DNA of 31,913 nucleotides from a virus. A program made the position numbers and the translations under genes. The notes under the pieces were generated by a model. That model did no database searches. It saw nothing but the letters and a program-made list of their open reading frames with translations, and was not told the origin of the DNA. The stretch spans positions 149,411 through 181,323 of the IMG/VR virus record IMGVR_UViG_3300045988_119030. The stretch is one strand, 5' to 3'. Shown here piece after piece: positions 605-30,308 of the stretch; the first letter of the stretch is position 1, and each line of letters starts with the position of its first letter.

Positions 605-2392
605 TCAGTAATTTGCAATCATTGTTTTAAAATCTTTAGAATTAAAAATTTCTCTCATTGGTTCAAGAATACATTTTTCAACCAAATATTTTCTATTTAA
701 GATATTATTAAAATCTTCATTAGTATATTCATAATTATATTCTTTTAAAATATTAATTATTTCATCTTTAGAGTATTTTCTACTTTTTACATAAGAATAT
801 AAATTAAGATACTTTTTAAATTTTTCATAATAAGGACTTACAGTAATATCTACTGCGAATTGATTATCTTCAAGAAGATAGTCTGCGGAATCTTCAAATA
901 AATTTTTTACGAAAATTTCATTAGGAATTGTTTGAATATCTTTATTATTATAAGAAACCAATAAATCTCCTTGAGATAAAAGACCTAAAAATCTATCTGT
1001 TAATATATCGTCCTCAATTAAATCTACAAAATTTAAACAGTCTTTGATTATATTATAAACTCCATCGCCGTTATTTAAATAATTTTGAATATGTTTACAT
1101 TTATTTTTAGTAAGAATTGCACTTTCTTTAAGGGTTTTTAAAGTTTTACATTTATCTAAAAAAGAATACCAAAAGCCGTCAAGATTATTTAAATAAATAT
1201 CAATAGCTACAACCTTATCACTTAAAGATACATCAGCATAATAAATTTCAGCTTCAATAGATTCCGCGATTTTTTTATTCCATTCAAAAATTTCTTCATT
1301 CGAATAATTTTTATCTTCATAAGATAAAAATACATTTTTATTAATAGTATTTACATATTTCTTATGAAAAAAAATATTCTCAGGAAATGTATTTAAATTA
1401 GTAATACAAGATCCACCCATGATAATAATATCGTTATTATCTAATGTTTCATAAGGAAGAATAACAGAAAACTTTCTATCATCATAAGAAAAGCAATTTT
1501 GATACATTTCAGTTAAAATACGTTCAACCGCAATTTCAAATACAGGAAAAGCACCAAAATTAACTGAGATAGTTCCATTTTTATAATTAATAAGAATTCC
1601 CATTACTACTGGAACATTAAACGTTCTTGACATATCAATAATATAATATTTATTGCCATGGGATTCAATAGCATTAATAATCTTAATTAACTTTTCATCA
1701 GTAATACTATTAATATCAACAAAATAATAATCCTTATTAGGATTAGTATAAAAATGACTAACAACATAATGTTCAAAAATTTCTGAAAGTCCTTGATTTA
1801 ATGCCTCAATTATAGTATTACCAGCAGCCATACCTGAACTTCCCTGATAACGCTGAATGAGACGAGGATCTAAATACTTTACATCTTTTTCATTATTTAA
1901 ATTAATATAAGGAATACCAAAAAATTTATTATTATACATAGAAGTAAGACAATCTTTAATTATATAATTAGTTTCTTCGTCAAAAGAATTAAAAAACTTA
2001 TACATTAAAGAATCTTTTCCACCAAGGGCTTCTTTAAAGTTTACTTCTTTTTCATTTCTAAATAATGAATAATTATAATTTTTTTGGTTTACTTTGATTT
2101 TTTCATTACACAAAAAAGGATTACATAAATAATGTAATCCATTGCAAAATCTTTCATACATTTCAGCATATCCAGAAGCCATAGCGAACTCTTTAGATAC
2201 TCCTTTTCCAAAAGATCTTAAAATAGAATGACCTTTATAGTATAAACGAAGAGCAAGACTCCATGTTGTAGATTGTTCTTGACGTAAAACTTCTTCTATA
2301 CAATAAAAGCCTCGATCCGCAAAGAATTGCTTAATATTATTTACTGTATCTAAAGGATTAGTTTCTTTATAATGCTGTGAATAATTATTCAT
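605..2392 (-). CDS. ycaO: YcaO-domain protein (ATP-dependent amide-backbone activating enzyme family), 595 aa, stand-alone E. coli YcaO-like size
   Basis: Hallmark YcaO motifs seen in translation: SFGKGVSKEFAMASGYAEMYERF (GKG-x-S/T...A.ASxxAExxER) and YQGSSGMAAGNTIIEALNQGLSEIFEHY (SxGxAAG...EAxxxGLxExxE). TGA stop. No in-frame TAG. Confidence 0.75.
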   Translation of the reverse strand: MNNYSQHYKETNPLDTVNNIKQFFADRGFYCIEEVLRQEQSTTWSLALRLYYKGHSILRSFGKGVSKEFAMASGYAEMYERFCNGLHYLCNPFLCNEKIKVNQKNYNYSLFRNEKEVNFKEALGGKDSLMYKFFNSFDEETNYIIKDCLTSMYNNKFFGIPYINLNNEKDVKYLDPRLIQRYQGSSGMAAGNTIIEALNQGLSEIFEHYVVSHFYTNPNKDYYFVDINSITDEKLIKIINAIESHGNKYYIIDMSRTFNVPVVMGILINYKNGTISVNFGAFPVFEIAVERILTEMYQNCFSYDDRKFSVILPYETLDNNDIIIMGGSCITNLNTFPENIFFHKKYVNTINKNVFLSYEDKNYSNEEIFEWNKKIAESIEAEIYYADVSLSDKVVAIDIYLNNLDGFWYSFLDKCKTLKTLKESAILTKNKCKHIQNYLNNGDGVYNIIKDCLNFVDLIEDDILTDRFLGLLSQGDLLVSYNNKDIQTIPNEIFVKNLFEDSADYLLEDNQFAVDITVSPYYEKFKKYLNLYSYVKSRKYSKDEIINILKEYNYEYTNEDFNNILNRKYLVEKCILEPMREIFNSKDFKTMIANY

Positions 2393-2440
2393 ATGATATT
2401 ATGCCTTTCTTTTTTCTATCATATAAATATATTACTATAT

Positions 2441-2492
2441 TTTTTTAATAAAGTCAAAAACCTACCATTTTATTTGGTAGTTTTTGACTTTA
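2441..2492 (-). promoter_or_regulatory. 16-bp near-perfect inverted repeat (AAAGTCAAAAACCTACC / GGTAGTTTTTGACTTT) directly after the stop of gene 2493..2996. It embeds a TTGACT -35-like hexamer 17 nt from TAATAT. Candidate terminator/promoter junction for ycaO
   Basis: Stem-loop read directly. Lacks a clean U-tract on either strand, so its terminator role is uncertain. Confidence 0.3.
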
Positions 2493-2996
2493 TTAAATTG
2501 AATAAAAGCAATTAGGACATAAATACTAATTATCATCTATTTTAAATAATGGAATATTACTTACTTGTAAATTACATTTAAAGCATTGTTTATTTTTATA
2601 AATTTTTGGTATAAAAATTTCTATATTTGGCTCAAATAAATTTAAAAGATTATTAGATATTTTTTGAAAGTAAATATCTTTTTCTTTATTAGTATCATTA
2701 TAATTATATTGTAAAATATATTTACATATTACTTTACAATGATTTAAATTAGTTAATTTTAATTCTTCTACTGGAATAATAATATCAGATATATTATCTA
2801 AATTTATTTTAGATTTAATTGTATATTGTATTTGAAGAATTATAGTTTTATCTTTTTTAATAATTCCTAAATTAAAGCAAACAAAAAGTATCCAATAGTC
2901 ATAAATACTATTACTGTCAAAATCAAAAGATAAAGCTCTTATTTTATCCCAAAAGATTTGTTCTGGAATTTTAAATCCGCCATTACTAAATTTCAT
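2493..2996 (-). CDS. Hypothetical protein (~167 aa) with C-terminal 4-Cys zinc ribbon (CFKC...CPNC). Contains an in-frame TAG at 2526-2528
   Basis: Track ORF 2526..2996 ends in TAG. The frame continues QYLCPNCFYSI to a TAA at 2493-2495. RBS GGAGAG before ATG 2996. Confidence 0.5.
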
Positions 2997-3154
2997 TTAA
3001 CTCTCCATTAAAACAATACTCATAATAATTATTTGTATCTTTTTCAATTTGAATACTCCGAGGATAATCTAACTCCCAAGATGTTCTTTTATTATAAAAC
3101 TATAAAAAATTTTTTACTATATCTTGTATAAATTCTTTATATTCATCGTAAGTA

Positions 3155-5212
3155 TCAATCATATAAATCATACTCTTCTTTCTCAAGATAATTTAAAAAT
3201 TGATCATGGGCAAATTGATAATATATATATCCATTAAAATAATTTAATATTGGATATATTTCTTTTTTTAAATTATCAAATGATTTAATATATTCTCCAT
3301 CTAAACAATGAAAATTAATAGTATTGTTTTTTATATCACCTATAATTTTTTTACTTAAAGGGCATAAACAATCATTATTTATTTGTTTTAAAGGATAAAT
3401 TAAATTTATTTTATATAAAATATAATAACTTGTTTTAATAAAATTTTCTATAAAATAATTATTATGTTTTGTATAAATTAAATTATCATATTCATAAAAA
3501 TATTTTATTTCATATAAAATTCTAATAATTATTGATTGTAATATTTTATTTTTTTTATCTAAATTTAAATTATAGATATAAAGAAACTGTAAAAAGAAAA
3601 TAACTATTTTTACTAAATAATCTATAGCCTCAGACAATCCCGTATGAGATATGTTACCTGGATTAGTATTTAAATCAATTATATAATTTCCAATAGTCTA
3701 ATCAATTAGTTGTCCTTCTCCATATAAATTACATAAATCAAAAAATAAACTATCTTCGCATAAACAAAAATTACTATATTTTATATTATATTTCTATAAA
3801 AAACTTCGTTTTAAAAGTAATCCAAGTTTATTATCAGGAATAATAAACTATATAAAATCATTTTTTTCGTTATTTTTTATAAAATTATAAAGAATTTCTA
3901 ATTCATTATTTATATTAAATAAATCATCTGAATCCCAAAATAAAACATATTCATTAAAAGAATTTTCTAATCCTACGTTTCGTGCGACTCCAGGTCCTTT
4001 ACGAGTAAGATTTTTAAAAAAGAAACAAGGAAAATCCGCGTTATCAAATATTTTAATAACTTTTCTCTCACAAGCTGAATTATCACTTATTAAATATATA
4101 CAACAATCTTTAATAATTGTTTGCGCTCTTAATGAATTATATAAATCAATTATCTAATTATCATTAAGGTTATAATAAGGAATAATTATATCTATTTTGC
4201 CATCAATAAATCTATTTATACATTTTTGTAAATAGTAATTATTATATCGAAAGTCAATTGGAGTTTTACCATTTAAAAATTCCTAATAATTATTTAAAAA
4301 ATCTTCTTTATTATTTATAAGTTTTAAATAAAAGTCGTAGTCTTCAAAATAAGCATTTTCCATTGATACAGTAAATTCTGATTTAATGTTATAACATTTA
4401 TGCCATAGCCAAGAAGCGGTTGGTAAAGTAGCATCACAATATTTACAAATTTTCTTAGGTGAAAATATAAAATTATGTAAATCATCTAAGCTATTTATAT
4501 CTTCTAACTACAAATAATCTTCTTCCTCTTCTGGAATATTCAAATTATATTTTTTACAATAAATATCTAAGAATGCGGAAAAAGGACAGATATATATCTT
4601 ATAATTTTTTAATGTAAAACAAGGTATTTCATGTGGACAATATTGATAATAAGCCTTTGCTGGATCAGTATCTCCATTTTCATTTACAAGCTACTAACGC
4701 ATAAATAATCGCTCTTGATGATTAAAAGCAATACCATATTCTTGGCATTCTTCAACATCTTCATAATTTGTATAATTACTATAAGCAGTTATGTCGAACA
4801 TTATATCCATATCAAGGTATTCTTTTTTATGTTTAATAATATTTTTCATATTTAATCCATTAGATAAAACTTTTAATTGAGTTTTTTCTTTTGGAAATAT
4901 TTCACGAGCTATTTTACATAATTCAAATAGTTGTGGGTGAAGAGTTGGCTCTCCACCCACAATCATAAATACTTTTATATTAGGAATTTTTTTATTAGCC
5001 ATAATAACCTAATTGCGGAAATCATTTATATCAATAAACCAAGGCGTGGCTAAAGGTGAAAAATGATTACATCCCGCGCAATTAAGATTACAATGATCTA
5101 CTACTTGTATTTCTAAGCTTACACCATCATAAACAGATTTCCAAAGACTATGTGTATATGGAGGAATCCCACGATAATCTTTATCTTTCTTTATCTGTAT
5201 ATCGTTCATCAA
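3155..5212 (-). CDS. Radical SAM enzyme (N-terminal) fused to or translationally coupled with a GT-A/family-2 glycosyltransferase domain plus a C-terminal domain of unknown function. 12 in-frame TAG codons, including a TAG-TAG pair at 4691-4696
   Basis: One frame from ATG 5212 to TGA 3155-3157 with zero TAA/TGA. It links track ORFs 5009..5212, 4694..5002 and 3155..3637. Motifs: CNLNCAGC (CX3CX2C) and GGEPTLHP (rSAM). IDIIIPYYN...SLRAQT, ARNVGLENSFNEYVLFWDSDD (GT2 Rossmann start, ARN...DxDD). Cys-rich stretch after the rSAM core. Confidence 0.6.
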
Positions 5213-5762
5213 ATTCTCCTAATATATGTGTATTATAATCAACTAATTCTCTTATTTGATTATTGCGTTCATGTAAAAAACATTGAGTACAAATTTCATT
5301 TAAATTGTTTAAAGGTTCATGGAAAAAATTGCAATAATGTTTTTCAAAATCAACATATTTACAATACTTATCGCATATTAAAATATTACTATCTTTATTA
5401 TAAATCACAGGATGATCTTCTCGTAAGCGGAAAGATAGCTGAATTTTAAACATTAAAGTTCCTTGATAAGAATATAAAAAAGTTTTATAAAATATATCTT
5501 GGACTTTACTTTCAAAAGTAAATTTCTATTTATCTGTAGTAATAAGCTCAATGCATTCTATTTCATTCTAATCTATAGCTTTAACTTGCTAATAAACCTA
5601 ATTTAGAAAAGAATAATCAATATCATTCTAATTTTTAATTATTTTTGCAAAAACTATTTCTTTTGGAAAATTTAATTGAAATATAATATCATCACATTGA
5701 CGCTCATTAAATTTAACAGATTTTAAAATTTCTTTATCTGAATTAATAAAATTAATAACCAT
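5181..5762 (-). CDS. Hypothetical small Cys-rich protein (CDKYCKY...HYCNFF...CTQCF). Possible N-terminal extension to ATG 5762 containing 6 in-frame TAGs. The core 5181..5453 is a clean ORF
   Basis: Frame from ATG 5762 runs into track ORF 5181..5453 with only TAG interruptions. The high TAG density makes the extension uncertain. Overlaps the rSAM start by 32 nt. Confidence 0.3.
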
Positions 5763-6090
5763 TTCGTTTATCAGGAATTCCTTTTAATCGATCTCCTAAG
5801 AAATATCTATATAATTCATAAGAATCAGCAATATTATCGCATAAACAATTATTATTATTTTCATTGTTATTATTATCGTTATTATTATTATTATTATTAG
5901 ATTTTTCTGCATGATCTGTAATAATTATTTTAATGAAATTATTGATAATAGTATTAATTTCTTCATTTTCACCATTATTTTCAATCCAATTTAAATAAAT
6001 AACATATAAAAGATCTCTATAATCTTCTACATTGCTATAATCAAAAGTTTCAATTAAATGATTAATTTGATTTTTCATTTCTTCAATCAT
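5752..6090 (-). CDS. Small Asn-rich protein (112 aa) with a poly-N tract and a C-terminal CLC motif. Candidate precursor peptide or accessory protein of the rSAM-SPASM enzyme
   Basis: ORF overlaps the stop of the upstream rSAM-SPASM gene (ATGATTGA coupling). Low-complexity KSNNNNNNNDNNNNENNNNCLCDN. Confidence 0.5.
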   Translation of the reverse strand: MIEEMKNQINHLIETFDYSNVEDYRDLLYVIYLNWIENNGENEEINTIINNFIKIIITDHAEKSNNNNNNNDNNNNENNNNCLCDNIADSYELYRYFLGDRLKGIPDKRNGY

Positions 6091-7489
6091 TGTAATACCC
6101 CAAATTATGGCAAAGATTTAACCAATTTTCTTTATATTTTTCATCTGGAAAATAATTTTTTTCTAAAGCAATTTTAGTTAATCCTAATTCACAATAACTT
6201 TTAACTAAAAAAGATATTCTTGTTTTATGTAATTCACAAACACTTTTAGGCGGTAAAAATAAATCTCCAGTAGCTTCGAGTGCCGCACCAAGGCAAAGTT
6301 TTAAACAAAACGGATCATAAGGACAAGTAACACATCCAACATTTAAATGAGTATTGTTTGTCTTAATTACTGTATAAAGACTTGGATTAATTGCTGTAAT
6401 TCCAATAATTTTATCATTTTCAACTTCAAATTTACCGCCAATAAATTGCTGATAAGAAGTTCTGTGGCAAGGAACTAATTCCATAGTAGCAACATATAAA
6501 CAAGTTTGATGAGAAATTGCACAAGTGTAATTTCCATCTTTCCAAGTGACAGTTGGTTGTAATGGATCATAATTGTGTAATCCAATTAAAGATCCTTCTT
6601 CCCCATCTCCTAAAAAGATATGTCGAGCTAACTTATCTAATGAACTATCATTCATTTGGAATCTAATTTCAAGCATGTGAGTTAAGAATTCAAGATAGTG
6701 ATTTAATTTTTCTTCAGTCCATTCATCATTACGAACTTCTAAGAACATGGGCTGAAATTCATCGCGAGGCCCTTTACATAATTTATATTTCTCAAATTGT
6801 TCAAGCCACCAATCATAATTTTTAATAGCGCTTTCAATATTATTTGGAGAAATCATTGGATGAATACCGCAACAGTTCTTAGAAAGAAATTGCATAATCT
6901 TATCATAATATTCAAAATCTTTATTTTCTTCTCTTACACTATCATAAGGACCATCTACAGAACAAGATAAATTTAATTCCATTTCAAGGTCAAGAAATTT
7001 TTGAAGATATTCTTCCACTTTAGCTGCTTTTTTATCATCAGCAACAAAACTAAAGTTATTGGGGAAAGCAATACGAGGATGATGATTCTTAAAAAGATTA
7101 GGATGTTCTTCAAAGAGAGCTCCATAATATTTTAAAAGTAAATCAAAAATACTAAAGCCTAAATTATCATAAAATAAATCTCCAGCAAAGAGTTCTATTT
7201 CAAGGAATAAGACTTTTCTTTCGTTAAAAATATAATCTAATATAATGTTCATATTTTTAAGAATTTTTTCATTATTTGCTCTTGTTTCAAGTGGGTATAA
7301 ATCTTTTCCGTAACGAGCAATATAACAATATTCACACTTTTGATTACATTCTGGACGAATAATAAACTCAAAAGAGCTTTCATTTATCCAATATCCTTCT
7401 TCTTTATCCCCTTGATTAAAGCAATGGTTATCAAGAAATTTTTCAAAATATTTATTATTATCTAAAATACAACCTTCACTAATATTCAT
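6083..7489 (-). CDS. Radical SAM / SPASM-domain enzyme (peptide/protein-modifying maturase class), 468 aa
   Basis: CNQKCEYC (CX3CX2C) near the N-terminus. C-terminal CAISHQTC...C and GCVTCPYDPFCLKLC (CX2CX5CX3C SPASM signature). Start overlaps the TAA of the upstream gene by 1 nt. Confidence 0.8.
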   Translation of the reverse strand: MNISEGCILDNNKYFEKFLDNHCFNQGDKEEGYWINESSFEFIIRPECNQKCEYCYIARYGKDLYPLETRANNEKILKNMNIILDYIFNERKVLFLEIELFAGDLFYDNLGFSIFDLLLKYYGALFEEHPNLFKNHHPRIAFPNNFSFVADDKKAAKVEEYLQKFLDLEMELNLSCSVDGPYDSVREENKDFEYYDKIMQFLSKNCCGIHPMISPNNIESAIKNYDWWLEQFEKYKLCKGPRDEFQPMFLEVRNDEWTEEKLNHYLEFLTHMLEIRFQMNDSSLDKLARHIFLGDGEEGSLIGLHNYDPLQPTVTWKDGNYTCAISHQTCLYVATMELVPCHRTSYQQFIGGKFEVENDKIIGITAINPSLYTVIKTNNTHLNVGCVTCPYDPFCLKLCLGAALEATGDLFLPPKSVCELHKTRISFLVKSYCELGLTKIALEKNYFPDEKYKENWLNLCHNLGYYND

Positions 7490-8991
7490 TAATTGTATAC
7501 TCCTTGTTCTGTATATCTATCGTCATCCCAACATTCTTTAGGTAATACCCAATTATTTTCTCTATCAACATAATTATATAAAGCAGAAGAAATTCTTAAA
7601 GTTCCAATGCTTCTTAATAATTCACTACCAGTAGAAACCAAATTATTATAAGTACAAGCAAGATTTTTTGTTGTAATAAAAGCTAAGTGAAGCAATTTAT
7701 TATAATCATATTTATACACTGAATTTAATTGTCCGCACTCATTTAGCATTTGATATTCATTTAAAATAGTTTGAAACATGAATGGAAAAGAAGTGGTTTT
7801 AAATAAATTATATTTATAAAACACCTTATCAATTTCTTCATCTGATGCTGTTAAAAGATTAACACAAGAATGTCCTCTTGTCATTAAGTCTTTACGGGAA
7901 AGAGTGTCAATAGTGCCATCATCTTTAATGTTGTTTGGGTTTATATCAAACATATAATTTTGACAAGATACCATAGTACCGTCCCATAAAAGCTTTAATT
8001 CACTCCAATTAGAGCCACAAAAATTATTCATAGATAATGATCTAATAACTTCTTCATTTTTATCTTTAATGCATTGTAAAGCTTCTTCAATTGTTAAAGG
8101 GCATCCTTTTTGAGTCACATATTCTCCCAAATCGCATAAACTATCTTCATAAACACTTCTATATCCAACGATTAAACTAACTGGCATTCGTGGATCATGA
8201 AAATCAGACACATCAATATTAATTAATCTTTGTAAAAAAGATTCATACTCAATACGCTCATCCACTGATCCGTCTCTTGGATGTTCTGGACAAATAGAAA
8301 CTGAAGGATTAAGCGTAATAGCTTGATTAATAACTTTTTCATTTAATTCATATCCAAAAGTATCTAATTCTTTATAATAATCATGAACTTTTTCAAGAGT
8401 ATCTAATTGATTAATGAGCATTCCAGACAATACACCATGTAATTGTATTGAAATATTTGTATGATTAAATTTAATTTTATTTAATCCCTCTATAACTGTT
8501 GAAATAGTTTGAAAAATACGTTCATTATTTGCATTTCTAATATTATTAGTAGAATAAGCTCCATCATATGAAAATTGAATTGATAAATTCACATCATCTT
8601 GAGTTGTTAATTCATCTACTCTTTTAGCAAAAGCAATTATACGTTCTGGAAAATCCATTCCATTAGTTGAAAAATCAATATTTCTAATATTAGGAAAAAA
8701 TTTAAACCAATCATCTAAATGCTCTGTAATAAGATGAAGTGTTAGTGTTGGTTCTTGACCCCAAAATCCAAAATTATCAATTATATATCTATCAAGGTCT
8801 AATCTTTTAAAAATTTTTTTTACATTTTCAAGATAAGAACCATCAGTTAAAGCTTTAATTGTATCTTGTTGTAATTTAGCAGAACAACCATTTAAACTAT
8901 TTTCTATCATGCAATACTAACAATGTAAATTACACCCACATGAAGATACGAGTGTTACTGCTCTAACATCTATATCTGTATTTTTTTTCAT
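7489..8991 (-). CDS. Radical SAM enzyme (~500 aa) whose CX3CX2C motif is split by an in-frame TAG at 8917-8919 (SSCGCNLHC-TAG-YCM). True start is ATG 8991 with RBS AAAAAGGAG
   Basis: Track ORF starts at 8910. Upstream same-frame reading gives MKKNTDIDVRAVTLVSSCGCNLHC*YCMIENS. GFWGQEPTL aligns with the GGEP motif. Confidence 0.7.
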
Positions 8992-9017
8992 AAATTCTCC
9001 TTTTTCTCTTAAAAAAT

Positions 9018-9770
9018 TTAAGATCTTGATCTTCCTGCTCCACTTCTATTCGCGCTGTTAGAAGTATAAGCCCCTCTATAGGAGCAAGGTCTATAACTGC
9101 CTCTATGAGTATCATTATTAGAGCCTCTATGGCTTGTATAATAAGTATAATTACTTGAATAATTAGAACTATTATAAGCATTATTAGAACTTCTATTAGA
9201 ACCGTTATAAGCATTATTAGAACCTCGATGAGTTCCATCATAAGCATAGTACCCATTTCTATGTGTACCATTATAACTAGCGTCATAAGCATTATTAGAA
9301 GCTCTATAACTACCATTATAGCCACCATCATAAGCATAATTAGAGGCTCTATAACTACCATCATAACTAGCGTCATAAGCATTATTAGAAGCTCTATAAC
9401 TACCATTATAACTACCATCATAAGCATTATTAGAAGCTCTATAACTACCATTATAACTACCATCATAAGCGCAAACCGCGTTTACTTCTTCAAGTTTTGT
9501 CCTAATTTGTGATAATGGAATATATCTAGTTAACTCATTTACTCTTGGGGCTGTAAAGGTGTCAAAAGTTGCTTTTGTACCAACGTAAGATACATTTCTT
9601 AAATTTTCAATTTCGTTCTTTATTGTGATAACATCTCGCGCCCCAACTCTTTGTTTAGTCTTATCAGGAATAGCAGTTCTACTTTGAGAAAATCTTGTTT
9701 GCGCTGTATTTAAGTTATCATATAAAGCACGAACATCAGCCCATGAAATTCGACTTCCTGTTCCTGCCAT
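9018..9770 (-). CDS. Tyr/Asn/Ser/Gly-rich tandem-repeat protein (250 aa): a ~95-aa N-terminal domain followed by ~15-aa repeats AYDGSYNGSYRASNN. Second gene of the operon, just upstream of the three rSAM genes
   Basis: Clean ORF, RBS AAAAAGGAG, TAA stop. Overlapping track ORFs 8963..9466 and 9228..9512 are repeat artefacts. Confidence 0.7.
   Translation of the reverse strand: MAGTGSRISWADVRALYDNLNTAQTRFSQSRTAIPDKTKQRVGARDVITIKNEIENLRNVSYVGTKATFDTFTAPRVNELTRYIPLSQIRTKLEEVNAVCAYDGSYNGSYRASNNAYDGSYNGSYRASNNAYDASYDGSYRASNYAYDGGYNGSYRASNNAYDASYNGTHRNGYYAYDGTHRGSNNAYNGSNRSSNNAYNSSNYSSNYTYYTSHRGSNNDTHRGSYRPCSYRGAYTSNSANRSGAGRSRS
9111..9470. repeat. Tandem direct repeats (45-bp unit, four perfect or near-perfect copies at 9291-9470, degenerate 30/45-bp copies upstream) encoding the repeat tail of the protein above
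   Basis: Exact 45-bp duplication ATTATTAGAAGCTCTATAACTACCATTATAACTACCATCATAAGC at 9381-9425 and 9426-9470. Confidence 0.8.
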
Positions 9771-9784
9771 AATTTTGCTCCTTT

Positions 9785-10195
9785 TTAATTATTAATTGAA
9801 TATTTAATTACAAAATCAACAGAAGAATTATATTCTTGTGCAAAAACTTGGTCCCCAATATCATTACTATACTCAAAAGAAAGTTCTTCAATATCATTTA
9901 ATTTCTTATCAAAAATAACACGATAATCTTCTGAAGTTGTTAAATAAGCAACTGTTATTTTATCCATAGTCTCTCTATTTAACTTTTTAATAATATTAGC
10001 TCCCTATTTAGCCAAATTTACTTTTTCCATATCATATTCTTGGCTAAATTCACGCATACGAAGAAAACAGAATTTGTTTTCAGTATTGGAACTAGAAGTA
10101 ATAGTAAAAGTAATTGGACCTGTAAGGATAGTATCCTCTACGTTTCCATCTTTATTAGTAATAGTAATTTTAAAAGTATTATCTAAATTTACCAT
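9785..10195 (-). CDS. Hypothetical beta-rich protein (136 aa) with one in-frame TAG (10004-10006) that joins track ORFs 10004..10213 and 9785..9967. First gene of the long operon
   Basis: Start ATG 10195 preceded by GAGGAGG at 9-nt spacing. The ORF ending in TAG continues in frame into the next ORF. Confidence 0.55.
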
Positions 10196-10224
10196 TTTAA
10201 TTTTCCTCCTCAAAAATTTTATAA

Positions 10225-10256
10225 AATATAGGATATATTATTTATTATCCTATATT
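10225..10256. promoter_or_regulatory. 11-bp inverted repeat AATATAGGATA-N10-TATCCTATATT in the promoter region of the operon. Candidate operator
   Basis: Palindrome read directly. Lies between terminator 10345-10374 and the first gene start at 10195. Confidence 0.4.
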
Positions 10257-10344
10257 TTATAAAAAAAAATTTTATTAATTTAATCTTTTTTGATTAAGTA
10301 TTTAAGTCTTTATTTAATTTATATTAATATAATAACAAAAAAAA

Positions 10345-10375: not shown

Positions 10376-10681
10376 TTAACTTAATCCTAATCTTGCCTTT
10401 AGATCAGCAATATTTTTCTTTTCATCTGTAGTAATTTCAATCGGGGTTTCTCCACCTGCGGTTGCCCCATCTTCAAAATTCAAAACATTTGAATCCGCGG
10501 TTGCGCCTGCTTCACCGACCGGAGTCTTTGGGCATGTCATACTAATAGCAATCTGAATTCGCTCACCATTCTCATTAGCCCAAAGATAATACTTTTTATC
10601 TCGCTCGCCGATCCAATCAGCGCCAAATACTTCCGCCATTTTCTTAGCGATCTGTTCCTTAGCTACTGCACCTTTAGCCAT
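10376..10681 (-). CDS. Hypothetical protein (101 aa)
   Basis: Clean ORF, TAA stop, ~45% GC. Confidence 0.65.
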   Translation of the reverse strand: MAKGAVAKEQIAKKMAEVFGADWIGERDKKYYLWANENGERIQIAISMTCPKTPVGEAGATADSNVLNFEDGATAGGETPIEITTDEKKNIADLKARLGLS

Positions 10682-10693
10682 ATCTAATTCTCC

Positions 10694-12127
10694 TTAACTA
10701 AAATTATGTATAAAGTCTTTTAAAGACCTAAAATTATTAACTTTTTCTTCACCAGCATCTCTAAAGCACCAAGGACATAAATACATATCAGTTCCTTTAT
10801 GATAGTGAATATCTTCTGTATAATATAAATTATTACAACATTCGCATCGTTTACAATAAGTATCCGCACAACTATCGCAAACTAATTCATTTTCATCGCC
10901 TACGGAATTTGCTTCGTCAAGGATTATACGAGAACCGCAACAAGCGCAATAACCATAGTTATCGTCTTCGTTTACTCCATAACTGAATTCACAATCTCCG
11001 CATCGCATATATTCTCCACTTTCAATTATAGTTTTACCGCATTGTAAACAAGGAACATCACCACCAATAGACCAATGAGGAAGATCAGTCTTGTCAAATG
11101 GATAATAATACAATTTTAAACTATAAATAGGCAAATAGCAAGAAGAATAAAGCAAATCATTATATTGAAGAGTATGCTCACCAATATCTTCAACGATATC
11201 ACTAATAGGATATAAACGAGACAAAATAGGAATCCATGTTTCAGATAATCCGATAGTCTCTTCTCCAAAAGGAATGCTACTCATCCTATTAGAGACAGTA
11301 GTAATACCTCCGTCTACCCATTCACGCAACTGAAAAGTCTTATCAAAAGTATTGATAATATCTTTAATTTTAATTAAAGCATTGGTTGTCATAAAAGGAT
11401 ATTGACGGCCAGCCATCAAACCGCGTCGCTTATCTTCCATATAAAGAAGCATACGCCATTTCTTAGAATTCCAAAGAACATCTTCGGGAAAGTGCGGAAG
11501 TTTCTGATTCTCTGCTCCGCGCAAATAGCAAATAAAAGTGCTTCTATCTACCATGTAAGATAAATTTCCTGCTCTATATTCACCATCAAGCGCATGGCAA
11601 GAGCGCCAATTATAAGTATTTTCACTTACGCTTAAAAAATCCAAAGGATGAACTGAGAAACATAATGTTCCCTCAATCTTGTCCTCTTGGATAATACGAC
11701 TTGCGTAATTTTGAATATCTTCCAAAGAGCGCGGATTCTCTTCAAAATACTTAAAAGCCTTAACTAATTTCATCCCTCTTGGAATCTTTTTATCCTTATA
11801 GAAATAAGTATCTATAACCGTATTGTTAAAGAATCCTTCTTTGTTTACTGAAATAAAATCCTTTAAGTCTTCATTGTTATAAGTATAATTAATTGTTTCA
11901 AGAAACTCTTCAAGACGATGTTCTTTAGTTTTATCATCTAAGGAAAAAGATACCTTTTCCGGCCATTCATAAATTAAATGACCATGAAAAAATTTAATTA
12001 AGTCTTTTTTGGCTTCGAGGAATCTTTCGAATAGTTCTTCTGTTTTTGGATTACTGATTCCTTGGGAGTAACTGATGACTTTGTTGAACTGTTCTCTAAT
12101 GCTTTCGATGTCGAAGTCATATGACAT
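10694..12127 (-). CDS. Large hypothetical protein (paralog A). Conserved core LCFSVHPLDF...W.SC...GEYRAG...WNSKKWR and a C-terminal tail with at least 5 CxxC zinc-ribbon pairs. Start is probably ATG 12127 (RBS GGAGGA), not the track start at 12148
   Basis: Paralogy with 14635..16239 seen directly in the translations. Confidence 0.7.
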   Translation of the reverse strand: MSYDFDIESIREQFNKVISYSQGISNPKTEELFERFLEAKKDLIKFFHGHLIYEWPEKVSFSLDDKTKEHRLEEFLETINYTYNNEDLKDFISVNKEGFFNNTVIDTYFYKDKKIPRGMKLVKAFKYFEENPRSLEDIQNYASRIIQEDKIEGTLCFSVHPLDFLSVSENTYNWRSCHALDGEYRAGNLSYMVDRSTFICYLRGAENQKLPHFPEDVLWNSKKWRMLLYMEDKRRGLMAGRQYPFMTTNALIKIKDIINTFDKTFQLREWVDGGITTVSNRMSSIPFGEETIGLSETWIPILSRLYPISDIVEDIGEHTLQYNDLLYSSCYLPIYSLKLYYYPFDKTDLPHWSIGGDVPCLQCGKTIIESGEYMRCGDCEFSYGVNEDDNYGYCACCGSRIILDEANSVGDENELVCDSCADTYCKRCECCNNLYYTEDIHYHKGTDMYLCPWCFRDAGEEKVNNFRSLKDFIHNFS

Positions 12128-13104
12128 TTGACTAATCCTCCAATACAATCTTTACAATACTCGCTGTGTGGGTTCGCAGGGTCAATTTCAAATGCCTCTT
12201 CACACTCCGCACACCATTCAACATTACTGGGAATACAATCAGGGCAATAAAAACATGTATGTCCATCTAATCCCTTTACTGGAAATGTTTCATACTCACT
12301 AAATAGCTGACCGCATCCTCTACAATGAACGTAGAATCCATCGCCATCAGTTGGAAAATTCTTACAAATATTATCGAACCAAATATTATGATAATTACGA
12401 TAATACTCAAAATTAGGGATATCTTTCTCTTGGAGCATGCGGATTACCTTATTAATCGTATCAAAAAGAGCACCCGCATTTAATGTTTCAATACGGTTAT
12501 GTTCATTTTTATAACCTACTGAAAGATTTACACCACAAATTTTCCATTCAGGGCATAAAACACTAATATCACTAAACGTGCCAAAATCTTCTACAAATCC
12601 AAAAGATTCAATGTAATCGATGAATTTAGGATTGTAAAGGTCATAAAACACACAATCATTTGTGCCCTGTCTATCCAACTGAATAATATATTTCAAGTTG
12701 GGAAATGGACACTCAAAATATTGTAATACTAATGCTTCGGCGCCCAATCCACCGATTTCTTCATCAGTGGTAAAAATAATAGAAGGGCGCAAAGACGTAT
12801 TTCTCAAAATATGAAGAATCGCATATACTCCTGCTCTATCATCTGCGCCAAGACCATCGGGCGACCAAAGCACATTTTTTCTTGTGTCATAATATAAATC
12901 TTTGACCGGTTTCTCAAACACGGTATCAAGATGAGCTACTAAAGCAATCGGAATATCACCAACCGCACAAACATACTCTTTAGTAATAACTACTTCAGTA
13001 TATTTAGATTTCAATACATCGGCAACATATTCTCTTAACTCATCTTGCGTCGAGCGAACCAGATATTCAAATAACCAAAGTTCATTAGTTTTAAAACCTC
13101 TCAC
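11998..13104 (-). CDS. MH-clan zinc metallopeptidase-like protein (M28/M42-like) with a C-terminal Cys-rich zinc-ribbon tail
   Basis: HLDTV, GADDRAG and DEEIGGLGAEAL motifs (metal ligands of aminopeptidase-type MH-clan enzymes). CRGCG...CFYCPDC...CAECEE...CKDC tail. The last ~40 codons are low-complexity and overlap the next gene by ~130 nt. Confidence 0.65.
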   Translation of the reverse strand: MRGFKTNELWLFEYLVRSTQDELREYVADVLKSKYTEVVITKEYVCAVGDIPIALVAHLDTVFEKPVKDLYYDTRKNVLWSPDGLGADDRAGVYAILHILRNTSLRPSIIFTTDEEIGGLGAEALVLQYFECPFPNLKYIIQLDRQGTNDCVFYDLYNPKFIDYIESFGFVEDFGTFSDISVLCPEWKICGVNLSVGYKNEHNRIETLNAGALFDTINKVIRMLQEKDIPNFEYYRNYHNIWFDNICKNFPTDGDGFYVHCRGCGQLFSEYETFPVKGLDGHTCFYCPDCIPSNVEWCAECEEAFEIDPANPHSEYCKDCIGGLVKCHMTSTSKALENSSTKSSVTPKESVIQKQKNYSKDSSKPKKT

Positions 13105-13155
13105 AGTTTATTCTCCTATCTTTTATCTTATATTTATATTATAACATTATTTTTT

Positions 13156-13956
13156 TTATTTGTCAATTGAGTCCTCTTCCGCCTCGGGGATAGGATTATT
13201 CTGCTTGCTTGCTTGAACGGCTTTATCTATAACACGAGAGAATATAAATGCGGTTTCACAATAATGACACGTCCCTTGTCGTTGACAGCGCTGACCGCAA
13301 TTGATGCGGTTGGGGCCAAAATCTTCGGGGATTCCACGATTATCCGCATTATAATTTAGATTGGTTAATAAAAGGTTTAGATTACCTTGCCAATGACCAC
13401 TTTGATAGATATCCAAAAGCACAGCTTCTTTGGAGAGCGCGGGTTCGTCAAATTCTAAGGTTGAGACATATGTTCCATAATAATCTACATCTTCCGGTCG
13501 GACATAAGAACCGCATATTCCATTTTCTCTTGGAAGGTTATCGTCATAGCATTTATTCGCAATCATACGAATTGGAACTTTTGCTTGCTGATTTAATTGT
13601 CTCAAATCAAACGTAAGCGGTGCCCCGATGAAAAGTTCGCTAACTCTAAGATCAAGGAGAACGCGGACTTCTGCCCATGTAGTAGCGGGATAAGCGAAAT
13701 AATACTTTACATCAATATTACATCCATTACGAGTAAGCATATCTTCAAATGCTACAATAAGATCGACTTTATTCTTAAAGGAATCAATTTCTTCCCAATT
13801 CACTTCTTCGTTTTTGCGGATTCTGATAATATATCGCTTATTGGGGAATTTCTAAATCATATCATACATAATGTTTATATCATTATAATTAACCATAAGC
13901 TCATCAGCCTTCTCGCGGACAACATCAGGTTGACGCACAGAAACACAATATTTCAA
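13156..13956 (-). CDS. Hypothetical protein with a C-terminal Cys cluster (CGQRCQRQGTCHYC). In-frame TAG at 13852-13854. TTG start after AAAGGAG
   Basis: Track ORF 13156..13803 extends upstream in frame through one TAG to TTG 13956. Confidence 0.5.
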
Positions 13957-13980
13957 ATTATATCACTCCTTTATAATATA

Positions 13981-14009
13981 ATTATAACAAAAAACTCCAA
14001 TTTTGTCAA
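13981..14009 (-). promoter_or_regulatory. Sigma70-like promoter TTGACA-N17-TATAAT for gene 13156..13956
   Basis: tgtcaa at 14004-14009 and attata at 13981-13986 on the plus strand, spacer 17 nt. Confidence 0.5.
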
Positions 14010-14082
14010 GAAAATTCTAAACGGCTTTTTACTTTTGGACTTTCGGTGTATGCGACCAGCACCGGTCGGAGCAGATAACAAG

Positions 14083-14114
14083 AAAAAATGGACTGAAAAT
14101 TTTTCAGTCCATTT
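14083..14114 (-). terminator. Hairpin GGACTGAAAA-TTTTTCAGTCC followed by a T-run. Terminator of gene 14128..14544
   Basis: Stem, loop and U-tract read directly. Confidence 0.65.
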
Positions 14115-14617: not shown

Positions 14618-14646
14618 ATTATATATTATTTTTTTTAAAAAATCAA
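14618..14646 (-). promoter_or_regulatory. Conserved promoter motif TTGATT-N17-TATAAT
   Basis: aatcaa at 14641-14646 and attata at 14618-14623, 17-nt spacer. Same extended motif as the other promoters listed here. Confidence 0.45.
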
Positions 14647-14661
14647 AGAAGGTCTTTGATT
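14629..14661 (-). terminator. Hairpin ATCAAAGACCTTCTTTGAT plus T-run overlapping the stop codon of gene 14635..16239
   Basis: Inverted repeat read directly. Confidence 0.45.
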
Positions 14662-16239
14662 TGGGTTAGTGCCATTAACCCAAGAAATAAACTCCTTTTC
14701 ATTAATATCAAAGAGGTCTCTACCCTTTTTAGTGAGAGTTTCTCCATCGACATAATAATTGGAGCGCCAACCGTCTCTGTCTTCTTCAATTTCACCACTG
14801 AAAAAAGTTTTTACTTTTTTATCTCCACAACAATCCCAACAAATATCCACATAGAATCCAACTGGCTTCTTCTGGAATCGAAGGCGGATTTGCTTCATGT
14901 CATCATAATCTTTGCGGACTCTGCAACAAGGACAAATTTCTGTGCTTTCATCATAACAATAAGCACAGTAAGTTTTTCCATCAACATTATAAGTGTCATC
15001 GACATAAACAATATCGCCACACTTATCGCACTTTACCGCATCCGAACAACTCGTACAAATGGTCATTTCCGCGTTATTCTCTCTATCATCGAGGAGAGAA
15101 TCATCAAGAAGCTCTCCACAACACATACACTCAGATTCACCCGAGTAGTTAAGATCAATGTTTTCGTCCGTAGGAATCTTAGTGGAAACGTAAGCATTAT
15201 GCTCTGAATAGATATCGTTATACATGAAATTGGTATCAAGATTGAAATAAATATTTCTATCAAGCTCACCAATAATATTATTACTGTAATTCTGAATCTT
15301 ATTTAAATACTTGGTATAAGGACCAAAACCAAGATTCTGTTCAGCGAGCTTTTTGATCCAAGCAAGACAAATGCTTTCAAGATTTTCATTACAATAAGGA
15401 TAACCCTTGATGCCAAGAATAAGACTTTTATCTACAATGAAAAGCTCACGCCAGCGCTTGCTATTCCACATAACAGGCTTACCAACCTTATACCAAATTT
15501 CCATATCCTTATCAGATTTAAGGTAAGCTTCGAGGATAATGGGAGAATTCATCATCTCAACGGTTCCCTGACGATACTCGCCACCACCATTCTGCCATCT
15601 CATACAAGAGTCCCAACCGCAATTATTATCACTCATAGTGATATAGTCAAGAGGATGAATAGAAAGACAAAGTTCACCAGAAATATTTTTCTGATTAAGG
15701 AACTGAGAATGAGCAATACGGAACTTTTCATAGATATCGCGGTCAATCTCCAAGATATCACTCATCTTACCAAGCATCTTGCTAAGCTTCATACCCTTAT
15801 TAATCATAAGAGTTTTATTGTTATAAGTGAATTTAAAAGATTCACCATCATAAATATTAGACATTAAAGGATCAACATCCAAAAGACTTGCCAGATTAAA
15901 ATACTGAGTATTAGAGATGGTTGTTTTAAGATAAAGATCTCTTACCTTATTATTAAAGGTATTTCGGAATTCATATCCATCACTATTTCGACCGAAATAA
16001 TCATAAAAATCCTCACTCATCTCTTCATAAGAGCGAGAATAACTTACCTTACGAGAAATGATAAGATTATTTCCCAACATCTTGTAAAGATTCTGCTTAT
16101 TATAAGCCCAAAAACGGAGAATGTAATCGAGAGATGTCTTCATATCGGAACTATCTCCACCGAGACCCGCAAAATTGCGGATATACCCTTCAATCTTTTC
16201 GCAATCTTCTTTGGAAAGGAGTTCAAATAAATTAGCCAT
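14635..16239 (-). CDS. Large hypothetical protein (paralog B, 534 aa). Core LCLSIHPLDY...W.SC...GEYRQG...WNSKRWR and a C-terminal tail of multiple CxxC zinc ribbons
   Basis: Clean ORF. Paralogous to 10694..12127. Confidence 0.8.
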   Translation of the reverse strand: MANLFELLSKEDCEKIEGYIRNFAGLGGDSSDMKTSLDYILRFWAYNKQNLYKMLGNNLIISRKVSYSRSYEEMSEDFYDYFGRNSDGYEFRNTFNNKVRDLYLKTTISNTQYFNLASLLDVDPLMSNIYDGESFKFTYNNKTLMINKGMKLSKMLGKMSDILEIDRDIYEKFRIAHSQFLNQKNISGELCLSIHPLDYITMSDNNCGWDSCMRWQNGGGEYRQGTVEMMNSPIILEAYLKSDKDMEIWYKVGKPVMWNSKRWRELFIVDKSLILGIKGYPYCNENLESICLAWIKKLAEQNLGFGPYTKYLNKIQNYSNNIIGELDRNIYFNLDTNFMYNDIYSEHNAYVSTKIPTDENIDLNYSGESECMCCGELLDDSLLDDRENNAEMTICTSCSDAVKCDKCGDIVYVDDTYNVDGKTYCAYCYDESTEICPCCRVRKDYDDMKQIRLRFQKKPVGFYVDICWDCCGDKKVKTFFSGEIEEDRDGWRSNYYVDGETLTKKGRDLFDINEKEFISWVNGTNPNQRPSLIF

Positions 16240-24955: not shown

Positions 24956-25885
24956 TTAACAAATTCTAAAAATTGTTGTATCCAATTTCAAATCATTAAT
25001 TGATAATTTATCTAAATGAAAATATGGGATTCTAATTAACGGGATGTTATTTTCTTTACACCATTGATTTTTAAAAGCATCATGTTCTTTTGTTTTTTCA
25101 AACTTTTCTAATGTATTCCAACCAGTTCCAGATTGATAATGCTATATTCCATCAAATTCAATTAAATAAGAATTATCAATATAAAAATCAAATTTAGCTT
25201 TATGGTTAGTATCCTAAAATTTACAATTTTCAAAAGTTTTTTCACAAATATACTAAATATTATGTTCTTTTAATAAAGAGATAATTTTTTCCTAACCTGC
25301 TGATTGTAAACAACCACAAGATTTACTTTGTCCTTTTCTTAAAGTAGTTCCTGATACAATTTTTTGATTGCCACAAGAGCATTGGCATAACCACATAGCA
25401 GTATTATGCTAATTAGATCCACTACGTTTTAACACTGTCCATCGACCAAAAGTTTGTCCTGTTAAATCAATTGTTGTAAGTTCACCGATCTTTTTATGAA
25501 TATAACAACCACATGAAATAACGGCGCCACTTACTAAACCATCTTTACGAATACTTTTAATAGTTCCACAATCACACTAACATTTCCAATAAGTATGCCC
25601 TTTTCCTTCTGTTCTATCATATCCTAAAACTGTTAGCATACCGAATTTTTTACCTGTTAAATCTTCTAACTGTTTTAAACGTTTCTAACATCCACACGAA
25701 GTTGTATGATTTGAAGTTAAATGAGAAGCAGAGACTACTGTCTTATTACCACATTCACATTGACATAACCAATACGATCCTTTTCTTGAATATTCAACTC
25801 GATATAAAACTGTTAATTTTCCAAAATGCTAATTAGTCAAATCTTTTGCTTGTCCTACTGGAATCTATTTATAAATTTTTTCCAT
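24956..25885 (-). CDS. DNA endonuclease-like protein: three N-terminal zinc-finger repeats (FG.LTVL...W.CQC.CG...SCGC) plus a C-terminal DUF559/Vsr-like PD-(D/E)xK domain (DFYID...IEFDGIQH). Nine in-frame TAG codons
   Basis: Region has no track ORF. Frame from ATG 25885 (RBS AAAAGGAG) to TAA 24956-24958 contains only TAG interruptions. TAG occupies positions that are CAA (Gln) in the sister repeats. Confidence 0.6.
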
Positions 25886-29178: not shown

Positions 29179-29207
29179 ATTATATATTAAAATTTAATAA
29201 AAATCAA
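29179..29207 (-). promoter_or_regulatory. Conserved promoter TTGATT-N17-TATAAT driving the leftward gene block
   Basis: aatcaa at 29202-29207 and attata at 29179-29184. Confidence 0.5.
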
Positions 29208-29640: not shown

Positions 29641-29846
29641 TTAGATTTGAAGTATATATGAAGGAGGTGAAAGTATTGTCAATAGAATAGAAAAGATTTC
29701 CTGCTAATGTAGATATGAATATATTAACTTTTTTAAATAATAAGAAGATAAATGGTGAATTATATGCTTATTTGTAGAGTTTATCTGATTATAATGTGAT
29801 TAATAAATAGCATAATATTTATAAAACTTATGTATTAAAAAAATGG

Positions 29847-30308
29847 TTGCCGATTCAAAGTAAGATGTGTCAAATGCTTGGTATTAAAAGTCCTAAAACA
29901 TTAAAAACGCATTTGAATTATTTAATTGAGCAAGGGTATATTATCGAAGAAGAAGATAGATATATATTACCTGAAATGGAGAGTATATATTTTCTTATTC
30001 CGCTACCTACATTAAGATATATAAATGATAACTGTAAAGAACATATTATAAAGATATATATTTATTTAGGATAGCGTTATAAATATGCGTTAAATAATGG
30101 AAGTTAGTATGAATTTACATTAGAGGAAATTGGAGAGCATAGTGGTATAAAAGTAAAGAATAACAGCAGGGGCTATGAGATTATTAATAATGCTTTAACA
30201 TTTTTATAGAATTCAGAATTAATTGATTATGTTAGCTTTTTTGATGGATAGACGCAGAAAAAGAAATTAACAAAATTTAGTTTTGAATATAAAAATTAGA
30301 ATAGGTAA
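29847..30308 (+). CDS. Putative DNA-binding / replication-initiator-like protein with two HTH-type segments. Five in-frame TAGs (30072, 30105, 30207, 30249, 30297). Start is TTG 29847 or ATG 29865
   Basis: Track ORF 29847..30074 ends in TAG. The frame continues to TAA 30306-30308. Flanked by iterons on both sides. HTH-like segments LGIKSPKTLKTHLNYLIEQGYI and FTLEEIGEHSGIKVKNNSRGYEIINNAL. Confidence 0.45.

Follow-up and report, generated by a model that had tools for sequence, protein, structure and literature searches.

A radical SAM-glycosyltransferase fusion with in-frame TAG codons, encoded near a repeat-tail protein in a cassette of recoded phages

Does a viral reading frame that is broken nine times by TAG under the standard genetic code encode one large enzyme, a short enzyme with a read-through product, or no functional protein, and on what might such an enzyme act? 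These questions are raised by a gene on the minus strand of a 31,913-nucleotide stretch (here, the window) of IMG/VR virus record IMGVR_UViG_3300045988_119030 (positions 149,411 to 181,323 of that record), which derives from a gut-type phage of ~190-196 kb. An original prediction, made from the nucleotide sequence without database searches, described this gene as a radical S-adenosylmethionine (SAM) domain joined to a glycosyltransferase family 2 (GT2) domain. The reading that we favor, with a probability of about 0.55, is that the gene encodes a two-domain enzyme, translated with TAG as glutamine, that would tailor a sugar on the repeat tail of a protein encoded in the same maturation cassette. 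The part of this reading that concerns TAG recoding and a single chain we regard as close to certain.

The gene occupies positions 3155..5209 (minus strand), starts at an ATG (5207-5209), ends at a TGA (3155-3157), and encodes 684 amino acids when TAG is read as glutamine. The start matches the N-terminus of a 98%-identical, 684-residue database protein (P0001), and a Shine-Dalgarno-like AGGAGA (5215..5220, minus strand) can be read from the sequence 5 nt 5' of the ATG. From position 5251 to the terminal TGA, the minus-strand frame runs for 699 codons without TAA or TGA. Given that TAA and TGA make up ~6% of trinucleotides on the minus strand, the chance of such a run is ~1e-19, and the frame is therefore not a chance product. 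Nine in-frame TAGs lie between start and stop, at codons 67, 172, 173, 234, 309, 352, 454, 472, and 504 (minus-strand positions 5009-5011, 4694-4696, 4691-4693, 4508-4510, 4283-4285, 4154-4156, 3848-3850, 3794-3796, and 3698-3700). Two further TAGs in the same frame (5219-5221 and 5243-5245) are 5' of the start, within the 3' end of the preceding gene, so that the maximal open frame holds 11. Neither count reaches the 12 amber codons originally reported for the gene (12 of ~37 in the window); ~40 in-frame TAGs were counted in plausible genes of the window, roughly a quarter of them in this one. As predicted, a radical SAM core, a Cys-rich segment, and a GT-A domain are joined without TAA or TGA, and the motifs CNLNCAGC, GGEPTLHP, IDIIIPYYN, and FWDSDD were all found. 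The gene has a G+C content of 22% and an operon-like setting: its 5' end shares 29 nt with the upstream neighbor, and the downstream gene starts in an overlap with its stop.

Codons at the nine TAG sites were compared with those of relatives having fetchable DNA, which are referred to below by locus (L) numbers. By this comparison, TAG is a glutamine codon in this phage, because relatives carry CAA or CAG at TAG sites and glutamine dominates three alignment columns; the nine TAGs of the fusion, including the adjacent pair, are read as ordinary glutamine codons. In L006 and L007 (92-93% identical), codons 172 and 234 are CAA, and all three differences from the 92%-identical L006 at TAG sites of the window are TAG/CAA or TAG/CAG swaps. 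In L008-L010, codon 67, the first in-frame TAG of the fusion, is CAG, and codons 172 and 352 are CAA. The L004 copy contains four in-frame TGAs in place of TAG, and this TGA-recoded relative has CAA at 4/9 of the TAG sites (codons 67, 172, 352, and 504). In a 47-sequence alignment, glutamine was the majority residue at positions 67 (30/46), 172 (34/46), and 352 (23/46), compared with a background of 3.5%. Moreover, when six cassette genes from eight loci were pooled, glutamine was the commonest non-TAG partner of TAG in both directions (18 and 24 cases). At least 10 plausible genes of the window contain in-frame TAGs, and most of these codons fall where G+C is low (2.5-5.8 kb, 24.9-25.9 kb, and 29.6-30.3 kb). 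A neighboring radical SAM gene (7489-8991), whose cluster motif is upstream of one such TAG, needs read-through to retain that motif. Gut phages that reassign TAG to glutamine (genetic code 15) have been described (PMC10879173, PMC11210395, PMC10607447); this recoding is already a known phenomenon, and the amber codons need no new mechanism. Because TAGs occur from codon 67 onward, expression of the fusion would depend on suppressor supply, and the full protein would be made only while a UAG suppressor, presumably phage-encoded, is active.

With regard to tRNAs, arrays of 5-13 tRNA genes were observed directly after the gene for a YcaO-domain protein (described below) in L006 (15576-21244) and likewise in L008, L009, and L010, a location that corresponds to just beyond the left end of the window (window position 1). 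No CUA anticodon was present among the tRNAs of the arrays in L006 and L008-L010. The first array element is a 71-nt tRNA-like sequence to which ARAGORN gave a two-base anticodon and which scored below the Rfam tRNA threshold.

The product of the gene is a single 684-residue protein, all parts of which have been kept by selection. A full-translation search recovered 110 related protein clusters, most of them 580-710 residues in length and carrying both Pfam Radical_SAM (PF04055) and Glycos_transf_2 (PF00535), and an exhaustive profile search of 1.84 billion representatives yielded, at 50% clustering, ~50 matches that are full-length and in a single stretch. Nearly all homologs are fused, in agreement with the fused chain originally proposed. 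The 593-residue forms that seemingly lack the Fe-S motif are start-calling artefacts; the cysteine motif is intact upstream in L011-L013. When the fusion was compared with L006, the ratio of nonsynonymous to synonymous substitution rates (dN/dS) was 0.11 overall; it was lowest in the linker (0.04) and highest in the GT-A core (0.16), with 0.10 both for the radical SAM and twitch domains and for the C-terminal region. Modeling of the full chain, as originally suggested, was carried out with AlphaFold2 on P0001 using an 82-sequence alignment; the predicted local distance difference test score (pLDDT) of 92.2 and predicted template modeling score (pTM) of 0.90 for the whole chain point to a defined domain arrangement. 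Conservation and the model also delineated a conserved helical linker (residues 277-336; 4202..4381, minus strand), which contains the methionine of the sequence MENAYF. Y291 and Y294 of the linker are invariant, and its modeled helices (283-336) have high pLDDT.

These data bear directly on two ways in which the TAGs might instead be true stops. The original prediction had located a TAG-TAG doublet at 4691-4696, exactly where a standard-code open reading frame (4694-5002) ends, and both observations were confirmed. From this coincidence it was proposed that the doublet could be a leaky terminator, giving both a truncated radical SAM protein and, by read-through, the long fusion, depending on the suppressor level, and translation of TAG-bearing genes in recoded phages is indeed thought to depend on suppressor tRNA supply (PMC10879173, PMC11210395). 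However, the TAG at codon 67 precedes the doublet; were TAG to terminate translation, the product would already be cut short within the radical SAM core, ahead of the GGE motif. Outside the doublet the gene has seven more TAGs spread along its length, and TGA-recoded homologs encode the same fused chain. Nor is the doublet (codons 172-173, minus strand; spanning peptide LFMRQQLVNENGDTDPAK, with TAG read as glutamine) conserved, because its first codon is CAA in L006/L007, L008-L010, and L004; the second is TAG in L006-L010 and Thr elsewhere. Rather than forming a conserved stop at a domain boundary behind a functional upstream product, it falls within the radical SAM fold, and the four conserved auxiliary-cluster cysteines are all downstream of it. 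One adjacent pair among nine TAGs in 684 codons is expected ~10% of the time by chance, and the doublet is unremarkable in itself. A leaky boundary is thus highly improbable, and the simpler suggestion made alongside it, that these are just two glutamine codons, is correct. Split genes and an internal start at the MENAYF methionine, which had been named as a possible refutation of the fusion, were also rejected, as homologs are fused and none has a separate start there. Finally, nine stops under the standard code might suggest a decaying pseudogene, but the probability of this is negligible: only TAG, never TAA or TGA, breaks the frame over 684 codons of 22% G+C DNA, dN/dS is 0.11, the catalytic motifs are all intact, and the TAG sites are glutamine in homologs, all of which contradicts decay.

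Within this single chain, the two halves were considered in turn. The radical SAM core and a twitch-like auxiliary domain span residues 30-270 (4400..5122, minus strand). Radical_SAM matched residues 35-145 at 32.7 bits, compared with a gathering threshold of 29.5. The cluster motif CX3CX2C (C40, C44, and C47 of CNLNCAGC; 5069..5092, minus strand) is conserved as cysteine in 77/77 homologs covering the region, and the SAM-binding GGE motif (G85, G86, and E87; 4949..4957, minus strand) is invariant in 82/82 sequences; these two motifs and the above-threshold match assign the domain to the radical SAM superfamily. Further downstream, C197, C208, C255, and C258 (4436..4621, minus strand), conserved in 75/82, 82/82, 82/82, and 77/82 sequences, respectively, are candidate ligands of an auxiliary Fe-S cluster. 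The closest solved structure to this half is SpeY, a twitch radical SAM dehydrogenase, and C208, C255, and C258 align with SpeY cysteines in a pairwise alignment. A partial TIM-barrel core followed by a short C-terminal domain for one auxiliary Fe-S cluster, as in twitch enzymes, was found here, and the N-terminal ~270 residues are predicted from fold and motifs to be a radical SAM domain with a one-cluster twitch-type extension. SPASM radical SAM enzymes, by comparison, have a seven-cysteine motif (CX9-15GX4C...CX2CX5CX3C...C) and two auxiliary clusters. A SPASM domain in the fusion was rejected, in that only four auxiliary cysteines are conserved and no CX2CX5CX3C is present.

The second half, the GT-A (GT2) catalytic domain, covers residues 337-520 (3650..4201, minus strand), and Glycos_transf_2 matched residues 341-462 at 52.5 bits (threshold, 23.3). 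The DXD motif (D426-S-D428-D429; 3923..3934, minus strand) has D426 and D428 invariant in 82/82 sequences, and D340 and R410 of the GT-A core are likewise invariant. An 'ED' motif (E485-D486; 3752..3757, minus strand), conserved in 82/82 and 81/82 sequences, respectively, is the candidate catalytic base region; this role and the other catalytic roles are putative, by analogy with GT2 enzymes in general. With an above-threshold family match, a GT-A fold, a DXD motif, and an acidic putative catalytic-base region, residues ~337-520 are predicted from fold and motifs to be an inverting-type GT-A/GT2 glycosyltransferase with DXD and ED intact. The C-terminal region (residues 521-684; 3158..3649, minus strand) is poorly conserved in sequence and is modeled as helices (527-677). 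Matches to the glycosyltransferases RmlT, TarP, and TarS extend past the GT-A core into part of this region. The original prediction had left ~230 residues after the GT-A domain as a segment of unknown function; part of it is accounted for as a helical extension like that in TarP, TarS, and RmlT.

The family is nearly confined to phage contigs of 100-214 kb that use alternative genetic codes, most of them classed as viral by IMG/VR; the closest relative, L006, lies on a 196 kb contig. Among prokaryotes, when one genome for each of 185,579 species was searched, there was one real match, L021. This contig (CAYLJU010000010.1; 50 kb), which is TAG-recoded and assigned by binning to a Muribaculaceae metagenome-assembled genome, contains two complete modules (radical SAM-GT2, repeat-tail protein, and both of the other radical SAM proteins described below) with differing repeat units. 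Probably a phage contig was placed in a bacterial genome bin here, and its placement is a weak hint of a Bacteroidales host. In L004 (IMG 3300028048, a 175 kb contig) the family carries in-frame TGA, whereas in L001, L006-L013, and L025-L027 it carries in-frame TAG, which indicates that the cassette crosses phages with different alternative codes. Searches of 50,697 GenBank phage records gave no match, either by megablast with 25 kb of the window or by tblastn with the fusion. PHROGs had no family for the fusion, and its neighbors matched only families of unknown function; BFVD had no viral model covering both halves. The phage-family matches in the window were phrog_2316, phrog_2319, a phosphoesterase, and an HNH/homing endonuclease.

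A radical SAM-GT2 fusion had been called an unusual architecture. It is uncharacterized, but the clade to which its radical SAM domain belongs has been fused with GT2 recurrently and in both domain orders. Members of this clade score 200-380 bits against profile positions 20-267 and occur as stand-alone ~255-residue proteins and as rSAM-rSAM, GT2-rSAM, GT2-methyltransferase-rSAM, and GT2-GT2-rSAM proteins (rSAM, radical SAM); a more distant GT2-rSAM protein is P0110, a 793-residue 'glycosyltransferase' of Vibrio vulnificus. Recurrent, independent fusion with GT2 in both orders argues that the radical SAM domain works on the sugar of the transferase. Literature searches found no description of radical SAM-GT2 fusions or of a phage cassette combining radical SAM and YcaO proteins, and the related protein clusters contained no named relatives of the family. 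Whereas the recoding is known, the enzyme family, the partnership of its clade with GT2, and the cassette with the repeat-tail protein are uncharacterized.

What, then, might the enzyme act on? In 10/10 divergent lineages (window/L006, L008, L001, L004, L011, L015, L021 with both copies, L025, L026, and L027), the fusion is separated by no more than a few genes from a trio that encodes a repeat-tail protein of 160-250 residues, a radical SAM protein of 460-500 residues, and a protein of 445-475 residues with CX3CX2C and a C-terminal, SPASM-like CX2CX5CX3C. In all ten, the repeat-tail gene is directly upstream of the ~500-residue radical SAM homolog. The repeat-tail protein of the window (9018..9770, minus strand; 250 residues), the candidate substrate, consists of a conserved N-terminal domain of ~103 residues followed by a Ser/Asn/Tyr/Gly/Arg tail built on the 15-residue unit AYDGSYNGSYRASNN; the gene contains a 45-nt tandem repeat of 4.6 copies (9266-9470). 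Counterparts are found at L001 13103-13810, L004 13818-14567, L011 11964-12479, L015 12907-13413, L021 4422-4916 and 12349-13047, L025 15568-16068, L026 15484-15969, and L027 13848-14591. Over these lineages, the N-terminal domain has ~100-135 residues and usually a cysteine at its end, and the tail has 47-150 residues composed of Ser (10-32%), Asn (6-33%), Gly (4-19%), and Phe/Tyr/Trp/His (15-33%), with some Arg, Ala, Asp, and Thr; Lys, Glu, Leu, Ile, Val, Met, and Pro are almost absent. N-x-S/T and Asn-aromatic motifs are numerous, and the repeats are short and lineage-specific (for example, AYDGSYNGSYRASNN, SGFRATNFTSNY, and GHFSSNFSSNF). In L001 the order is inverted, the repeat region coming first and the conserved domain following at the C-terminus. 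When the N-terminal domain was used as query, only close relatives were recovered.

The other members of the trio are encoded between the repeat-tail gene and the fusion, and both are syntenic in all lineages. The second radical SAM protein (7489..8991, minus strand; 500 residues; CGCNLHCQYC) matched Radical_SAM at 34.7 bits and had weak NCBIfam matches to peptide maturases. The third (6083..7489, minus strand; 468 residues) carries CNQKCEYC and, C-terminally, CVTCPYDPFCLKLC, a match to the SPASM-type pattern CX2CX5CX3C. It had no Pfam match at E<0.01, its NCBIfam SPASM score was 18.1 bits against a 27-bit cutoff, and its peptide-maturase matches were also sub-threshold; it is predicted to be a very divergent radical SAM/SPASM protein. 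Single-sequence searches of the PDB with these two proteins gave noise only. At the end of the cassette, a gene without in-frame TAG (605..2392, minus strand) encodes a 595-residue YcaO-domain protein (Pfam YcaO, 91.7 bits), whose best NCBIfam similarity, far below cutoff, is of the S12-methylthiotransferase-accessory type; the YcaO gene adjoins the radical SAM-GT2 gene in L006, L008-L010, L025, and L026. ThiF-family genes, a GT8 gene, a second GT2 gene, and a methyltransferase gene lie near the cassette in L025-L027. When the window was compared with L008, the ten-gene block at 605-10300, which includes a 136-residue protein, the repeat-tail protein, the two radical SAM proteins, small proteins, radical SAM-GT2, and YcaO, was 49-81% identical, whereas the adjacent 10,500-14,100 was 94-99% identical, with a sharp divergence step near 10,300. 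This pattern suggests that the cassette diverges or is exchanged as a unit, through fast evolution or cassette exchange.

Taken together, these features allow a mechanism to be proposed. The GT2 half would use a nucleotide sugar to glycosylate an acceptor. Either ahead of this transfer or following it, the radical SAM half would remove a hydrogen from a carbinol carbon of the sugar and so produce a keto or epimerized sugar. Such oxidation fits the precedent of SpeY and BtrN, which oxidize a sugar or cyclitol hydroxyl, and by this analogy we lean toward a bifunctional, sugar-directed fusion. The acceptor would be the Ser/Asn/aromatic repeat tail of the protein at 9018-9770, an assignment that we place somewhat short of even odds. 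Further changes to the tail would come from the two other radical SAM proteins and, in lineages that have it, from YcaO, and the cassette would constitute a phage-encoded protein-maturation pathway resembling those for peptides that are ribosomally synthesized and then modified post-translationally (RiPPs). As in RiPP clusters, a putative substrate gene adjoins maturase genes, an arrangement conserved in 10/10 lineages; matches to maturase families were far below the NCBIfam cutoffs, and neither a RiPP recognition element nor a protease was identified. More tentatively, the hypervariable cassette might build a new kind of viral modified protein, its tail cross-linked or changed in some other way by two radical SAM maturases, with YcaO and ThiF enzymes, and bearing an oxidized or epimerized sugar from the fusion, as a virion-surface or effector glycoprotein that diversifies between near-identical phages.

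Several observations weigh against the favored reading. The acceptor was picked out by synteny alone, and the neighboring radical SAM proteins match peptide-maturase families only far below NCBIfam cutoffs. The first auxiliary cysteine of SpeY aligns with C191, which is conserved in 22/82 sequences, and not with the family-conserved C197 (75/82). The C-terminal 160 residues carry no assigned role, and scans of the window and of 22 kb pieces from relatives turned up no tRNA(CUA), the available sequence being ~16% of the genome. Other targets of the enzyme were also considered. In structure the GT half comes closest to RmlT, TarP, and TarS, which glycosylate wall teichoic acid; in BFVD it matched GT2 proteins of phages, including one named GtrB, and its relatives occur in multi-GT2 proteins of 1000-2257 residues. 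By its resemblance to prophage-encoded TarP or to the Gtr seroconversion enzymes, the fusion might glycosylate a host envelope polymer (teichoic-acid-like, capsule, or O-antigen), for example to block superinfection, with the radical SAM domain tailoring the sugar; we consider this unlikely. Less likely by far is a role in DNA hypermodification, in which a base would be glycosylated and then radically tailored. Phages do use glycosyltransferases on DNA, and radical SAM enzymes in some thymidine-hypermodification pathways (PMC8989533), and such systems are frequent in large phages. However, no gene for nucleotide metabolism or base hydroxymethylation was found in the cassette, and the conserved partner is a repeat protein rather than a DNA enzyme. 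Moreover, to our knowledge, TarP-type GT2/GT-A enzymes are not among the DNA glucosyltransferase families.

Additional genes were noted in and around the cassette. Upstream of the fusion, a gene with 5 in-frame TAGs (5181..5762, minus strand) encodes a 193-residue protein with a Cys-rich C-terminus and homologs in L015 and L021. It is preceded by a gene (5752-6090, minus strand) of 19% G+C and no in-frame TAG for a 112-residue protein with the Asn/Asp run NNNNNNNDNNNNENNNN. Two small downstream genes (2493..3171, minus strand; 62 and 167 residues), conserved in L006 and L008-L010, follow the fusion, the first overlapping its stop codon. Near the cassette in distant relatives (L025 4361-5964, L026 2167-2871, and L027 18721-20312) are genes for a chorismate mutase (CM_2), a DAHP/KDO8P-synthase-family protein, and a Na+/sulfate-citrate-type transporter, which may help to provide aromatic amino acids or sugars. 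Elsewhere in the window, paralogues of 477 and 534 residues (10694-12127 and 14635-16239, minus strand), ~24% identical via homologs, have C-terminal clusters of CxxC pairs; they are conserved beside the cassette in L001 and L027 and matched no Pfam or PHROG family. The HNH/homing-endonuclease gene (24956-25885, minus strand; phrog_374, E 2.6e-60), with 9 in-frame TAGs and 28% G+C, is flanked by TAG-free genes of 37-41% G+C and looks like a mobile insertion that itself uses TAG as glutamine. A plus-strand gene (29658-30308) of 24% G+C encodes 216 residues with 8 in-frame TAGs. Gene orientation switches near 29,200 and the sign of the GC skew reverses at about 28-29 kb; together these shifts suggest a point of divergent transcription or a boundary related to replication.

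A conserved, phage-restricted enzyme family is thus predicted to join a sugar-directed radical SAM domain to a glycosyltransferase, within a cassette of three radical SAM domains. If the cassette does modify the repeat-tail protein, it would be a phage-encoded, RiPP-like glycoprotein pathway, and an orphan radical SAM clade that recurs with GT2 in many architectures would gain a concrete substrate. There is also a consequence for annotation: standard-code gene calling breaks TAG-bearing genes of this kind, and the 593-residue database entries lack the Fe-S motif solely through start calling.

How does this locus compare with known systems? Like code 15 gut phages, the source phage has in-frame TAGs in conserved genes that match glutamine in homologs, an uneven spread of TAG among genes, and a large, low-G+C genome, with tRNA arrays in relatives; it differs in that the available sequence, ~16% of the genome, contains no suppressor tRNA or release-factor gene. 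With RiPP pathways in which a radical SAM maturase is paired with a GT2, namely mycofactocin (MftC and MftF) and the glycocin S-glycosyltransferase SunS, the cassette shares a putative substrate gene beside radical SAM/SPASM-like maturases, GT2, and YcaO/ThiF. However, the matches of its proteins to these families are far below cutoffs, the putative substrate, at 160-250 residues, combines a domain that looks folded with a long repeat tail rather than being a short leader-core peptide, and the radical SAM half of the fusion resembles sugar-directed, not peptide-directed, enzymes. Bacterial GT2-radical SAM fusions such as P0110 also carry PF00535 and PF04055 in one chain, and the radical SAM domain of metagenomic GT2-rSAM proteins belongs to the same clade as that of the fusion. 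The P0110-type proteins, in contrast, have the reversed domain order and extra CoA_binding and C-methyltransferase domains, and P0110 aligns to the fusion over only 18% of its length (E 2e-4). RmlT (8bz4), TarP (6h1j, prophage-encoded), and TarS (5tze), compared by overall fold, likewise have a DXD motif and a helical extension after the GT-A core, and the fusion, like them, appears soluble rather than membrane-embedded; identity is 17-23%, none has a radical SAM domain, and the context of the fusion is a peptide-maturase-like cassette rather than a teichoic acid locus. SpeY (7wzv/7wzx/7x0b) and BtrN (4m7s) are stand-alone enzymes of bacterial aminoglycoside pathways with only ~20% sequence identity to the phage domain, which is fused to GT2, and the family-conserved fourth cysteine, C197, is offset from its position in SpeY. 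Nonetheless, the CX3CX2C context is similar (C.H.SPL), and the downstream cysteines of SpeY align at C208, C255, and C258. SpeY oxidizes a sugar-ring hydroxyl of a spectinomycin precursor after a glycosyltransferase has attached the sugar. Glycosyltransfer followed by radical dehydrogenation is, by analogy, the logic that we propose for the fusion.

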